From: Akkermansia sp.
Lineage (GTDB): Bacteria > Verrucomicrobiota > Verrucomicrobiia > Verrucomicrobiales > Akkermansiaceae
Assembly: GCA_030525455.1 (NCBI GenBank)
Contig: JAUNER010000007.1
Location: forward strand, 23,110-87,109
DNA length: 64,000 bases
Direction: 5' to 3'
Made by a program: the position numbers and the translations under genes. The notes under the pieces are model-generated. The model saw nothing but the letters and a program-made list of their open reading frames with translations. It was not told the DNA's origin and did not search any database. Positions 2,658 to 23,899 of this stretch are shown here, piece after piece (positions within the stretch are counted from its first letter, which is position 1; every line of letters begins with the position of its first letter).

Positions 2658-4055
2658 TTAGGAGTGGTGGAAGGCTTGGCCGTCAGCAGGGGACATTTGG
2701 TGGGTGACGGGGTGAGATTTGAAAAAAGCGAGCATACGGCGGAAGTCCTCTAGGAAGAGGGAGGCGAGGTCTTTGGAGAAGCCTTGGCGAACCATGATAC
2801 GCATGACGGTCGTTTGCTGACAGTCAGCAGGGAGAGTAAAGGCCGGGACCTGCCAGCCACGGGTGCGGAGTTTGTCTGACAAATCAAAGAGATTATAGGG
2901 CAGAGTGGAGCCGGGTTTGATAAAGAAGCAGACGGCAGGGATGCCGGATTTTTCATCGCCTGTGCAGATAAACTCGTAAGGGCCTAGTTTACTAATCTCT
3001 GCGGTGAGGAACTTAGCGACTTGGTAGGCCTGGGTGTGGATATTGGTATAGCCCTGACGACCTAGACGGATGAAGTCGTAATACTGACTGATGACCTGCC
3101 CGGCGGGGCGAGAGAAATTAATAGCAAAAGTAGGCACTTCACCGCCAAGGTAGTTGACGTTAAAGACGAGTTCTTGAGGCAGGACGGAAACATCTCGCCA
3201 GACAATCCAGCCACAGCCCAGGGGAGCTAAGCCGTATTTGTGACCGGATGTGCTGATGGATTTTACACGCGGAGTGCGGAAATCGAACTCAATTTCCGGG
3301 GCACAAAAGGGGGCAAGGAAGCCACCGCTCGCGGCATCGACGTGAATATCGACACTAATGCCCGTGCGAGCCTCGAACGAATCGAGAGCCTTGGCGATTT
3401 TATCCGGGAATTCAAATGCACCTGTATAAGTTACGCCGAAAGTAGGCACGACGACGATGGTATTTTCGTCTACTTGCTCGAGCATACGCTGCTCATCCAT
3501 GGCCCATTTGCCCTCTGCCATTGGAATTTCACGCATTTCTACGTCCCAATATCGGCAGAACTTATGCCAGCAAATCTGCACCGGACCGCAGACGAGGTTG
3601 GGCTTATCGGTGGGTTTACCGGCAGCCTTTCTGCGGGCACGCCATCGCCAAAGAGCCGCCATACCGCCAAGCATACAAGCCTCGCTGGAACCAATGGTAG
3701 AGCAACCGATAGGCGTTTCTGAGGGGGAAGCATTCCACAAGTTTGCCAGAATAGCCGCACACCGCATCTCGATAGCGGCGGTTTGGGGGTACTCGTCTTT
3801 GTCAATCATGTTTTTATCGATGCTCAGATCCATGAGCATACGCACTTGTTTTTCATCCCAAGTTTGGCAGAAAGTTGCTAAATTTTGGCGAGCATTGCCA
3901 TCGAGCATTAGCTCATCTGAGACAAGTTGAAAGGCTTCCTCCGGTCGCATCATTTGCTCGGGGAAGTGGTGGCGAGGCAGACTGTTGCAAACTTCAGGAG
4001 AACCGAAAATGGAATGTTGAGCGGTCGCTTGCCGGGGGGGAGTAGGAGTATTCAT
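2658..4055 (-). CDS. gadB: Glutamate decarboxylase
   Basis: [33 protein letters not shown] and the PLP lysine motif STSGHKYGL. Confidence 0.97.
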
Positions 4056-4167
4056 CGTGGTATTTCTATTTCATTGAAAGCCGGGGAAGGGTAGTCCCTG
4101 CATTTAGGGGAATAGAGCCGCTTTTATATAAAGCCGTTCAAAACCGCTGTGTCAGCTTAGTATTCCG

Positions 4168-5232
4168 GGGTGATTAGCGGTGAAGAGTAAGGGGTGTATT
4201 TCTTCCCCCAACCGCAAGCGAATGGGCGAGAGCCTAGTTACAGAGAAACGGAGAGATAGCCCGGTATTTCTCCTAAAACCACGCTCGACACCCAAGCGTT
4301 CACCCGCTGGGAGCACGTAAAGGTCTCCTGACTTTAGCGGTGAGGCTAATCAAGTTTTTATTTGGAACCGGAGCGTTAGCTCCTATTACTTGGAGAAAGG
4401 GCTAATTTGCAGAGATGGCTAGGGCTGGTTATACGCTATTGCTAAAGTCAGGAGACTTTAGCTCCCAGGTAGGCAGCGTGTGCGTTGATTTCTAGGGGAA
4501 TTAGCGTGGGAGCGTGAAGTTTGTAATTTGTCCTCTAACCGCAAACGAATGGGCGTGAGCTTAGTTACAGAGAAACGGAGAGATAGCCAAATATCGTCTT
4601 AAAAGCCTTAGCCGACATCCAAGCGACGAGCACTGGGGACTTCGAGCTCCTGCTCGTAGCAGTGAGGTTAATCAACGGTAAATCTACAGAAACAACCATT
4701 CCCTAGTGACTCCAAACTGTGATTCTCCCTCTGTGGGTATACCTCTGTTGGTTTGGCCACTTTGTGGCAGTTCCGCTTTTGGAGAAGCGGAACAACTAAA
4801 GTCGGGAGACTTTAGTTCCCAGGGATTCAGCGTATGCTCTGTGTTCTTAGGTAATTAGCGGTGGAACGTAAGTGGTGTATTTTGTCCTCTAACCGCAAGC
4901 GTATGGGCGTGAGCCTAGTTACAAAGAAACGCATAAAAACCCGATAAAGCTATCTATCCACGCTCGACACTCAAGCGTTCATCTCGCTGGGAGCTAAAGT
5001 CTCCTGACTTTAGCGGTGAGGTTAACCCAGCTTTTATTTGGAACCGGAGCGTTAGCTCCTATTACTTGGAGAAAGGGCTAATTTGCAGAGATGGCTAGGG
5101 CTGGTTATACGCTATTGCTAAAGTCAGGAGACTTTAGCTCCCAGGGATTCAGCGTATGCTCTGTATTTTTAGGTGATTAGCGGTGAAGCGTGGAGGGGGT
5201 ATTCTGCCCCCCCAACCGCAAGCGACGAGCAC
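4168..5232. repeat. Non-coding tandem array of ~320-355-bp units, each with inverted REP-like hairpin pairs
   Basis: The anchor aaccgcaa occurs at 4210, 4537, 4891 and 5213. The 28-mer ctgggagctaaagtctcctgactttagc or a variant is at 4307, 4633 and 4987, and its reverse complement at 4441, 4795 and 5117. 4356-4469 is identical to 5032-5145. Confidence 0.95.
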
Positions 5233-5303
5233 TAGTGAATACTGTCGAAAGGGGGGAAAGGTTAGGATTGATTTTTAGTGAGGACTTAGGTAGTCTGCAA
5301 AGC

Positions 5304-6092
5304 ATGGATTGGGAGTTAGTACTGGATATACTCCGTGCAATAGTTGAGATAGTGATATTGTGGGTGTTTTTGTACCAAGTGTACAGAGCATTCCATGCTA
5401 CACGAGCCGCACGCATCATGGTAGGGCTATTTGTCTGTTTCTTAGCCTTGGTTGTATTAGCCGGGTTATTTCAATTAAACGTTATTTCGTGGTTATTGAC
5501 GCGAATATTTGGTCCGGGTTTGGCCTTAGCCTTGGTGGTGATTTTCCAGCCTGAATTGCGAGTAGGTTTGGCAAAGCTGGGGAGTCATCCGCTTTTATCC
5601 TCATTTGCGACGTTACACAGAGATGATTTTCTTGATGATTTTTGTAAAGCCGTCAGTAAGCTTTCCAGTCTACATACGGGGGCGATATTTGCCTTTGAGA
5701 GAGGAATTAGTATGAAGCAGATTGAAAATACAGGCATCAAGGTAGATGCTATATTTTCACCGGAGTTGGCCCATACGATATTTTACTCAAAGACGGCTCT
5801 GCATGATGGCGGGGTAGTGATAGCCGGGGATAGAATATCGGCGGCAGGTTGTATCTTCCCTGTATCAAATAAAGAACTCCAAGACAGAACCCTAGGGCTA
5901 CGGCACAGAGCCGGTGTAGGGATGAGTGATGAGGCGGATTGCGTCGTGGTTATCGTCTCTGAAGAAACAGGTTCCATATCAATAGCTTTGGCTGGTAAGC
6001 TAGAAAGAAATTTGACCATAGACCAGCTGAAAGGTCGGCTCCAAGAACTGCTAAACATATCATCGAACAATGAAAAATCTACTGTTGCTTAA
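5304..6092 (+). CDS. cdaA: Membrane diadenylate cyclase CdaA/DacA
   Basis: Three N-terminal TM helices, ALVVIFQPELR, HDGG (DGA-like) and GLRHRA motifs. The likely start is MDWELV at 5304, since the ORF-track start lies in the repeat array. Confidence 0.93.
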   Translation: MDWELVLDILRAIVEIVILWVFLYQVYRAFHATRAARIMVGLFVCFLALVVLAGLFQLNVISWLLTRIFGPGLALALVVIFQPELRVGLAKLGSHPLLSSFATLHRDDFLDDFCKAVSKLSSLHTGAIFAFERGISMKQIENTGIKVDAIFSPELAHTIFYSKTALHDGGVVIAGDRISAAGCIFPVSNKELQDRTLGLRHRAGVGMSDEADCVVVIVSEETGSISIALAGKLERNLTIDQLKGRLQELLNISSNNEKSTVA

Positions 6093-22984: not shown

Positions 22985-23899
22985 TTAGGAAAATAAGCCA
23001 CAGAGGAAAAAGAAAAAGTCTTTGACCAGGAACCACAACGTCCGTGTGTTTGTTACACAATCGCTGAAAAATTGTGGGATGTCGATGACCTTAAATATCC
23101 CCATAAAAATGAGGAAGAGTAGCTGGTTGATGAGGTAAATTAGAAGTAATGAGAAAAAGACTCCGTTTTCGGATAGGTCGCTCTGGTCTTTGGGTATCAT
23201 CCATGCCGTCCAGAATAAATGAAAAGCCCACCAAAATCCTAGCCCTGCATAGAGAAGGGCTTCGCAGGTATAGCTCGGGTAAAAATAATAGACTATGCCT
23301 GCTAGTATGGCCCAAATAACTCCGTAAATAGGTATAAAATAGGGTGAGAGGGCTATGAATAAATTATTCTTGTTTGTCTGGATGTAGCCACCATCTAGCG
23401 ATGTGTTAAAATCACTTACCCTCCCACGACTGCAATAAACAGCGATGGCGTGGGTAAGCTCGTGCCCAAAGATGTAGGTGTAGAGTAGTGAGGTCGAAAC
23501 CAGCTTGCTAGACCCTAGAATTATCCAAACAATGGCTCCCAGTAATGTGTACCAAACAGGAATAGAAAATAATATCCCCATAGGGTCTGTGGCTTTGGTG
23601 AGCTGCTCACAGAGAGATAGAGAAATAATGAGGGTTAGTGGTAATAGGATGAAAAGGGCAATCCCATGGCGAAGTAATCGAGTCCATAGGGGTAATTCCA
23701 TGTATGGATCCGGCAGAGCGTATTCTTCATCCCAGTATTCAGCAGTGGCCTGTACTCGGTAGGTCTTTGTCCATGCATTTTGGTTGCATCGTTTGACAAC
23801 AGACCTGAAATTGCTATGTTTTCGGGTACAAGAATTCTCCTTTTTTGTCGGTTCCGGCCATGGTGGCATTTTACCGGGCTGTTTAGGAGATGGTGCCAT
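22985..23899 (-). CDS. M50-like membrane metallopeptidase
   Basis: Multiple TM segments with HELTH (HExxH) and NLFIALSPYF. Confidence 0.7.
   Translation of the reverse strand: MAPSPKQPGKMPPWPEPTKKENSCTRKHSNFRSVVKRCNQNAWTKTYRVQATAEYWDEEYALPDPYMELPLWTRLLRHGIALFILLPLTLIISLSLCEQLTKATDPMGILFSIPVWYTLLGAIVWIILGSSKLVSTSLLYTYIFGHELTHAIAVYCSRGRVSDFNTSLDGGYIQTNKNNLFIALSPYFIPIYGVIWAILAGIVYYFYPSYTCEALLYAGLGFWWAFHLFWTAWMIPKDQSDLSENGVFFSLLLIYLINQLLFLIFMGIFKVIDIPQFFSDCVTNTRTLWFLVKDFFFFLCGLFS

Follow-up and report, generated by a model that had tools for sequence, protein, structure and literature searches.

Hairpin doublets of a predicted REP/RAYT system in tandem arrays of an Akkermansia-like verrucomicrobium

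Tandem arrays of paired hairpins occupy intergenic regions in a genome of Akkermansia sp. (GenBank assembly GCA_030525455.1), and one of them spans positions 4171-5240 of the 64,000-nucleotide stretch of contig JAUNER010000007.1 analyzed here (contig positions 23,110 to 87,109, hereafter the window), upstream of the diadenylate cyclase gene cdaA. Together with a gene for a Y1/HUH-type enzyme that lies on another contig between two arrays of the same units, these hairpins most probably make up a repetitive extragenic palindrome (REP) system of the REPtron type, resembling BIMEs (bacterial interspersed mosaic elements), in which the 20-nt palindromes are REP hairpins arranged as inverted doublets (REPINs) and are the predicted substrates of a REP-associated tyrosine transposase (RAYT). 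That REPs are read by RAYTs is an established principle, and the new element is an example in an Akkermansia-like verrucomicrobium. To our knowledge, no REP/RAYT system has been described in Akkermansia-like verrucomicrobia, although the literature was not searched specifically for one. Binding and cleavage of the hairpins, the pairing of enzymes with hairpin classes, and any effect on cdaA are inferred from sequence.

Genome-wide, 53 tag-oriented hairpins fall into three discrete classes with no intermediates: class A, CTAAAGTC-N4-GACTTTAG, with 27 exact copies; class A', a bulged form, GTAAAGGTC..GACTTTAG, with about 10 copies; and class B, CTTCGAGC..GCTCGTAG, with 15 copies. The REP layout comprises a 5′ CTGGGR tag, 2 nt, a stem of 7 bp (or 9 bp in class A), and a TCCY loop, and on the TCCY-loop strand the tags read CTGGGAG in class A and GTCGGGA or CTGGGG[GAT] in class B. 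Loops are TCCT in 32 hairpins, TCCC in 18, TCCG in two, and TTCG in one, with TCC kept in 52 of 53. Both orientations are seen in every class; the right hairpin of a unit is a reverse-complemented left hairpin, loop and mismatch included, and every unit has one REP with its tag on the + strand and one with its tag on the - strand. Only three substitutions were found in ~850 stem positions, whereas whole units average ~80% identity, which places stem variability more than 50-fold below that of the rest of the unit. One of the three restores a mismatched pair; the other two read as G.T or as A.C depending on the strand, and one of these lies in a degenerate solo copy. Even the irregularities are maintained, as the T.T (or A.A) mismatch of class B is present in all 15 copies and in the metagenomic locus L049 described below, and the bulge of class A' is likewise kept. 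Because stems are near-invariant within each class, they are conserved within the genome in sequence and not in fold alone.

The two hairpins of a doublet enclose a cargo that is either short (S, ~100 nt) or long (L, ~135-145 nt), and classes and cargos are combined as A-S-A, A'-S-A, B-L-B, A-L-B, A'-L-B, B-S-A, and B-L-A, the last being the second unit of the window array. The normal class-B flank is caaCTACGAGC...GCTCGAAGtcc, and hybrid hairpins at C16:3552 and C24:80495 have a right-hairpin flank joined to a left-hairpin flank. In one variant of the right class-B hairpin, 18-24 nt (GAACCGCAGGTGAGCGTG...) are inserted within the 3′ arm; this variant was seen at three loci, namely C30 near 23071 and C24 near 31330 of this genome (G000) and positions 17-60 of L077, a contig holding the conspecific cdaA array.

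The candidate enzyme, RAYT-A, was found by a genome search with Pfam Y1_Tnp as a single-copy gene encoding 197 aa (G000:C16:3705-4298), with an A hairpin bearing a TCCT loop upstream and an inverted A hairpin bearing an AGGA loop downstream. The protein passes the Pfam Y1_Tnp cut-off of 23 with 40 bits, its best NCBIfam match is REP_Tyr_transpos (NF047646; 71.3 bits, E 7e-20), its best PDB sequence match is the TnpArep structure 4er8 (16% identity), and its database homologues are named 'REP element-mobilizing transposase RayT'. An AlphaFold2 model built with 34 homologues reached a predicted local distance difference test score (pLDDT) of 89.5, and the top Foldseek match of this model was 4er8_A, a complex of a RAYT with a REP hairpin (E 3e-6), followed by the IS200, IS608, and ISDra2 transposases. 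The residues H107, H109, and Y167 are present and are invariant across the 34 homologues, the core is preceded by an N-terminal part of ~85 aa, and no tnpB is adjacent to the gene. The initial annotation, made from the window alone, had proposed either a HUH enzyme or a functional RNA behind the hairpins; a RAYT-type Y1/HUH gene inside an array, bracketed by inverted class-A hairpins, makes the HUH enzyme the best candidate reader.

Other Y1-like genes on contigs C34, C28, and C15 were considered as partners and rejected, as no hairpins lie nearby. The C28 gene (L027, G000:C28:41111-42673) is a 520-aa open reading frame (ORF) with an N-terminal Y1/HUH-like segment (QNHVHVLL), which seems to be joined to a 16S rRNA methyltransferase of the RsmH (MraW) type, the RsmH assignment having been made by eye. 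The further two are long, C34:34434-35459 encoding 341 aa with HYH and Y..NP motifs and C15:8045-9154 encoding 369 aa.

A second enzyme appears to belong to the same family of repeats. The closest non-self homologue of RAYT-A, RAYT-B (P0002), has 57% identity and is encoded on an 851-bp metagenome contig from ENA (L049), where the right part of cargo L lies upstream of the gene in reverse complement and a class-B hairpin, cccaccg-CTACGAGCAGGAGCTCGAAG-tcccc, lies downstream. Positions 1-97 and 788-832 of this contig are 84-91% identical to the L cargos and B hairpin of the present genome. Since RAYT-B is flanked by cargo L and a B hairpin, class B and cargo L would belong to this second RAYT, and adjacency suggests the pairing of class A with RAYT-A and the short cargo, and of class B with RAYT-B and the long cargo. 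The RAYT-B gene was not found in this assembly; the assembly may have dropped it, the genome may have lost it, or it may be resident in a relative, or else RAYT-A may serve both classes. Both RAYT genes (L025 3705-4298; L049 195-779) have a GC content of 31%, compared with ~44% for the genome and ~45-48% for the surrounding repeats, which suggests that they were imported or are under a different compositional pressure.

The cargos themselves are related to the enzyme loci. When the RAYT-A locus (C16:3540-4400) is compared with an S-type doublet, identity is 80-96% over the left 46 nt and 96-97% over the right 66-81 nt, with ~25 nt in cargo S taking the place of the 717 nt that hold the RAYT-A gene, and cargo L bears the same relation to the RAYT-B locus. 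As the matches extend to both sides, the doublets represent gene-less miniatures of the enzyme loci. Spacers that are still recognizable as a gene-deleted enzyme locus are relevant to the proposal that REPINs arose from IS200-like elements. The two enzymes also offer a natural specificity pair, being 57% identical with stems that differ at five adjacent pairs while sharing tag and loop, and this pair is suited to the study of substrate discrimination by RAYTs.

The same hairpin design recurs beside RAYT homologues of 30-45% identity in other genomes and in metagenomes, where the flanking hairpins consist of CTGGGA, 2 nt, a 7-bp stem, and a loop of 3-4 nt. Their stems and loops are GCCGACG with tcct (L032), GCCGACG with tccc and GCCAACG with tcct (both L036), GGCGGGC with taa or tga (L039), GCGGACA with tcc (L072), GCGACGC with tcca (L073), GCGGGCG with gct or gcc (L074), GCGACAG with agcc (L075), and GCCGAGC with ccca (L076). 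A strict search pattern found 16 sites in seven of 24 RAYT-homologue loci, against a mean of 0.2 and a maximum of two in shuffles. In an alignment of 17 distinct hairpin sequences, in which 3-nt loops were given an N placeholder, all seven stem pairs show double-sided changes, 93.3% of cells are paired (shuffles give 51.7%, and sliding the partner column gives 29-39%), and the covariation score of 1.03, compared with 0.28, is reached by none of 500 shuffles. In this wider sampling, stem-breaking changes were not as common as compensatory ones. Arrays are also found at several homologues: at L036 (G026:C56), the RAYT gene is flanked on either side by alternating REP and inverted-REP copies with a ~175-nt period, and L040, L042, and L046 are, like it, RAYT homologues from other families of the order that lie inside multi-module tandem arrays, so that large composite arrays seem to be common in this RAYT clade.

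These comparisons change how the hairpins of the window are to be read. The initial annotation had drawn attention to the second unit, where the canonical left stem CTAAAGTC-tcct-GACTTTAG (4994-5013) is replaced by CTTCGAGC-tcct-GCTCGTAG (4640-4659) and where the right hairpin is A-CTAAAGTC-ggga-GACTTTAG-T (4795-4816), and had taken the differences as compensatory changes that reveal selection on structure. The coordinates and sequences are accurate, and the four double-sided changes are real (pairs 4-7: A-T>C-G, A-T>G-C, G-C>A-T, T-A>G-C), but a fifth change, at pair 3, where A-T gives way to a T.T mismatch, had been overlooked. Assuming independence of the five changed positions in each arm, chance would compensate at least four of five pairs with p ~0.045 (own calculation), and this single comparison of A and B stems, taken alone, is only suggestive of compensation. 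The left hairpin of unit 2 does differ from the canonical one; it is not a mutated canonical copy, however, but a member of the recurrent class B (n=15, both orientations). Stepwise compensatory mutation of this stem within the array was therefore rejected, as class B recurs with its own enzyme and without intermediates. Similarly, the outer A-T pair of the right hairpin is present as described, but it is the normal class-B flank in a chimeric hairpin and not an independent compensation.

The broader proposal, that the hairpins are constrained, holds on firmer ground than the comparison from which it was drawn, given the near-invariant stems of each class and the covariation of all seven stem pairs across RAYT-homologue loci. 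That the fold and loop are recognized, rather than the stem sequence, fits the comparison between species, in which stems vary freely while the fold and the CTGGGA tag are kept, but it does not fit this genome, in which stems are invariant within each class, the fourth loop base varies, and each class appears to have its own RAYT. The loop is conserved only in part, being of the TCC or TCCY type in about half of the homologue loci (four of eight: L032, L036, L072, and L073) and different in the other four. With each class fixed and paired with its own putative enzyme, the evidence points to stem identity as a determinant of specificity, and stem identity probably sets which enzyme acts rather than being irrelevant.

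A mechanism of the following kind would account for these patterns. When DNA becomes single-stranded, for example at a replication fork, a REP hairpin would extrude and would be read strand-specifically by the RAYT through its tag, its loop, and the shape or identity of its stem. The enzyme would then cut and rejoin nearby, so that doublets could be copied, deleted, and recombined, and the expected outcome would be mosaic units such as the B-L-A unit 2, hybrid hairpins, and arrays with a strain-specific make-up. For TnpA-REP, tag, loop, and stem irregularities have been shown experimentally to determine recognition (PMC8266576, PMC3479197).

Units of this family are numerous in the genome and were not detected in its relatives. 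Searches with nhmmer and BLAST found ~32 full or partial units in ~12 arrays, plus solo fragments, in the 2.15-Mb, 40-contig genome, on contigs C7, C12, C13, C16 (two arrays), C19, C20, C24 (two), C26, C28, C30, and C38. All arrays are intergenic, their orientation relative to neighboring genes is mixed, and several lie at contig ends. BLAST found no copy of the repeat unit in 24 genomes of the same genus and 16 of the same order, and the RAYT-A gene was not found in 36 same-genus species; gene and repeat, both missing from the congeners searched, thus co-occur in this species only. A scan of 185,579 species genomes for GCTAAAGTC-N4-GACTTTAGC returned 14 single matches in unrelated taxa, none multi-copy, where ~17 would be expected by chance according to our own estimate, and a metagenome scan with a 19-mer from the L cargo returned eight chance matches without units.

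Conspecific sequences from other samples reveal differences between strains. Two contigs, L077 and L078, are 98.8% identical to the window over cdaA and its downstream flank, and both end inside the array. Before the last frame (the stretch between successive doublets), the window has a class-A hairpin, whereas both conspecific contigs have the class-B right-hairpin flank, and one of them has the B hairpin with the insertion. The content of the array thus differs between strains whose CdaA protein is identical, and the differing class of the last hairpin indicates that array make-up is polymorphic within the species. These arrays fragment the assembly at many contig ends and vary by strain, and they could serve as strain markers.

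The closest known counterpart is the REPtron of E. coli, in which a single-copy HUH/Y1 gene (TnpA-REP/YafM, PDB 4ER8) is likewise bracketed by its own extragenic palindromes, with REPs of alternating orientation, mosaic tandem clusters, and conserved inter-REP motifs. The two systems also share a 5′ tag, a loop, and stem irregularity, and 4er8 is the top match of the RAYT-A model. The present system differs in having CTGGGR and not GTAG, a TCCY loop, only ~53 copies, and a 197-aa protein, with ~85 aa ahead of its core, that has only 16% identity to 4er8. BIMEs of E. coli are about 80-100 nt in length. The elements here are much longer, with a period of 325-360 nt, a spacer of 85-135 nt, and a 166-nt frame. 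The E. coli system has been described by Nunvar 2010 (PMC2817692), Messing 2012 (PMC3479197), and Corneloup 2021 (PMC8266576), and by Ton-Hoang 2012 (PMC3333891) as cited through PMC6006769, and a single-copy RAYT amid alternating REPs is the known anatomy of REPtrons (PMC2817692, PMC3479197, PMC6006769, PMC8266576).

Resemblance to the REPIN-RAYT systems of Pseudomonas (Bertels & Rainey 2011, PMC3116915; PMC3337134; PMC5581495) lies in inverted REP doublets that can fold into a long hairpin and in the assignment of one RAYT to each REP class, with several classes and paralogues able to share a genome. In the present system, by contrast, the long doublet spacer demonstrably comes from the RAYT locus, and many doublets are heterotypic (B-L-A, A-L-B), so that the long stem is often impossible and local hairpins alone persist. 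Nor do 36 congeneric species share the system, whereas vertical inheritance is described as the prevailing mode for REPIN-RAYT systems. Hairpins without GT[AG]G and with another 5′ foot are also known from subclass 2.6 and class 3 of TnpA-Y1 (Quentin et al. 2018, PMC6006769); the foot in class 3 is, for example, CnGA, and such REPtron-like loci, noted for 'atypical secondary structures', occur in Planctomycetes, Bacteroidetes, and others (PMC6006769). Unlike class 3, with its Y....Q motif, RAYT-A has NHVH and Y...N, which suggest a class-2 signature (family consensus Y...NP).

Several observations weigh against the identification of a REP/REPIN-RAYT system. Typical REPs have a 5′ GT[AG]G tag that is missing here, where the tag reads CTGGGR, although non-GTAG hairpin feet are documented for TnpA-Y1 subclass 2.6 and class 3 (PMC6006769), and 53 copies is low for a REP family, which typically has more than 100 (PMC2817692). 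The NCBIfam NF047646 score of 71.3 lies below the curated cut-off of 80, the motif YIRKNI in RAYT-A (YIKSNI in RAYT-B) departs from the family consensus YIxxNP, and 15 class-B hairpins are without a cognate enzyme in this assembly. Rows of the hairpin alignment were required to have at least six of seven pairs, which inflates the paired-cell percentage; the variety of pair types and the enrichment to 16 sites are independent of this selection. Lastly, REP biology does not explain the frame with its strand-biased pairing. This segment has a constant length of 165-168 nt (e.g. window 4852-4990 and 4462-4633), and its + strand consensus contains the stems CTCTGT/ACAGAG and GCGG/CCGC and a GGC-GNRA-GCC mini-hairpin with the loops GAGA, GTGA, and GAAA. 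The CTCTGT/ACAGAG stem has a covarying variant, CTTTGT/ACAAAG, and at one pair five U.G stand against one C.A; in all, one or two pairs covary in the frame, and the alifold energy is -11.2 on the + strand compared with -3.8 on the - strand.

A speculative extension, possible and on the whole rather doubtful, would bring the frame into the system: the constant frame, with its strand-biased three-stem fold, would be a scaffold common to two RAYT paralogues that differ in stem specificity and keep moving gene-less miniatures into it, giving rise to enzyme-driven mosaic 'REP satellites' with fast turnover. If so, the cargos would record how an enzyme-bearing element passed directly into a REPIN, and the frame would be a functional module of single-stranded DNA (ssDNA) or RNA, for example an enzyme loading or target site, and not a passive spacer.

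Other explanations dispense with a domesticated RAYT altogether. The repeats could be an autonomous insertion sequence (IS) of the IS200/IS605 type accompanied by non-autonomous miniatures, comparable to palindrome-associated transposable elements (PATEs) or miniature inverted-repeat transposable elements (MITEs), and thus an ordinary selfish transposon. Such elements have the same catalytic fold, hairpin ends recognized as ssDNA, and gene-less miniatures that keep both ends, and the S and L cargos are MITE-like in being internal-deletion derivatives of the enzyme loci; the GC content of both enzyme genes (31% vs 44%) suggests recent import, the family is confined to one species, and transposases of IS200, IS608, and ISDra2 are the next-best structural matches. 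This explanation is nonetheless judged unlikely, as the enzyme gene is single-copy with no tnpB adjoining it, the flanking hairpins are inverted, with loop and mismatch reverse-complemented, where IS ends would be left and right ends on the same strand, the best profile and structure matches are to RAYT and not IS200, and the homologues sit singly amid alternating REP/inverted-REP arrays. Tandem arrays with a shared frame are a further difference from IS200/IS605. Quite improbable, too, is a structured non-coding RNA, whether a tandem array of small RNAs or a leader of cdaA, in which the hairpins would be conserved as RNA stems. The frame gives this idea its substance through its + strand fold, GGC-GNRA-GCC mini-hairpin, G.U pairs, and one or two covarying pairs, the window array is co-directional with cdaA, and REPs are known to act in mRNA once transcribed. 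However, Rfam yields no family match even when E is allowed to reach 10, positions 4000-5400 contain no promoter-like site and no convincing terminator, every unit has the hairpin in both orientations, arrays are of mixed orientation relative to neighboring genes, and array content varies between strains with identical CdaA. The physical linkage of the hairpin to HUH enzyme genes and the asymmetric tag and loop kept across species fit strand-specific recognition of ssDNA instead, and a functional-RNA reading of the hairpins finds little support.

It is also conceivable, with a very small chance of being correct, that no hairpin-reading enzyme is involved and that the palindromes are duplex sites for a dimeric DNA-binding protein or are maintained neutrally by template switching or gene conversion. 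Any dyad-symmetric operator would also give paired changes on both arms, quasipalindrome template switching is known to yield several 'compensatory' changes in one event, and within the genome there are discrete classes only, with no stepwise compensation. Yet the class-B T.T (or A.A) mismatch and the class-A' bulge break duplex dyad symmetry, tag and loop are conserved and lack symmetry, the stems vary more than 50-fold less than the remainder of the unit, and the same design recurs beside RAYT homologues in unrelated genomes.

Within the window, the array fills a 1.25-kb intergenic gap as a mosaic repeat on the + strand, with a period of 325-360 nt and one 166-nt frame and one REP doublet per unit. 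It contains three full units and a partial unit, at periods of 327, 354, and 323 nt, and window 4172-5225 corresponds to the nhmmer matches at C20:27281-28334. Tandem Repeats Finder did not detect the array at 4171-5240, owing to its variable period and mosaic units. Unit 1 (4171-4497, +) is of type A'-S-A. Its left hairpin (4317-4337, +; C20:27426), GTAAAGGTC-tcct-GACTTTAG, belongs to class A', has a bulged G, and follows the tag CTGGGAGCAC; its right hairpin (4442-4461, -) is an inverted class A that reads CTAAAGTC-agga-GACTTTAG on the + strand and has its tag CTGGGAG on the minus strand.

Unit 2 (4498-4851, +) is the B-L-A chimera. Its left REP (4634-4659, +) is of class B and consists of CTGGGG, A, and CTTCGAGC-tcct-GCTCGTAG, with the T.T mismatch at pair 3. 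The long cargo L that follows (4660-4794, +), a gene-deleted derivative of the RAYT-B locus, includes a conserved 9-bp hairpin, GTTCCGCTT-ttggag-AAGCGGAAC, and the right REP (4795-4816, -) combines a class-A core, CTAAAGTC-ggga-GACTTTAG, with class-B flanks that supply the outer A-T pair. Unit 3 (4852-5174, +) is of type A-S-A, with a left class-A REP (4986-5013, +; CTGGGAG followed by CTAAAGTC-tcct-GACTTTAG), a short cargo S (5014-5117, +) that is the RAYT-A locus of contig C16 in miniature, without the gene, and an inverted class-A right REP (5118-5137, -; C20:28227). The terminal partial unit (5175-5240, +) joins the head of a frame to the flank that precedes a class-B REP hairpin (CAAGCGACGAGCACT) and stops at the point where the tag would start, a junction also found in L077 and L078.

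Folded as ssDNA, the individual hairpins have energies of -8.6 kcal/mol (z -3.5) at 4994-5013, -8.5 kcal/mol (z -2.1) at 4640-4659, and -8.1 kcal/mol (z -3.5) at 4795-4816. The homotypic unit 3, whose inverted repeat has 48-nt arms that are 81% complementary, is predicted to form one long REPIN-type hairpin (-43.3 kcal/mol, z -8.2). In the heterotypic unit 2 the long hairpin is impossible and two local hairpins are kept (-38.1 kcal/mol, z -4.0). Since heterotypic units are common, the conserved object is the local hairpin and not the long stem.

The array lies between a divergent gene for a decarboxylase-like protein dependent on pyridoxal phosphate (putatively a glutamate decarboxylase; 2658-4055, -; Pyridoxal_deC, 289 bits) and cdaA (5304-6092, +; DAC, 119 bits; CdaA_N, 34 bits). 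A promoter scan of 4000-5400 found no promoter-like site, and a terminator scan of the same region found two weak terminator-like hairpins only, within shuffle expectation. With Rfam 15 at gathering thresholds, the whole window gave only a tRNA, located elsewhere in the window, and at E up to 10 positions 4000-5400 gave chance matches to microRNA and CRISPR-DR families (best E 1.8).

A third small repeat, ACCGGACCATTGGGCTTTAGCCC, is present in ~12 good copies in the genome, on contigs C12, C15, C19, C24, C26, C28, C29, C36, C38, and C40, often immediately following a left-type hairpin at an array's outer end, and may be a further module or a target site. Elsewhere in the window, a 99-nt tandem repeat at 820-1452 (6.4 copies, 83% matches) lies within an ORF at 370-1524 and codes for ankyrin-type repeats.

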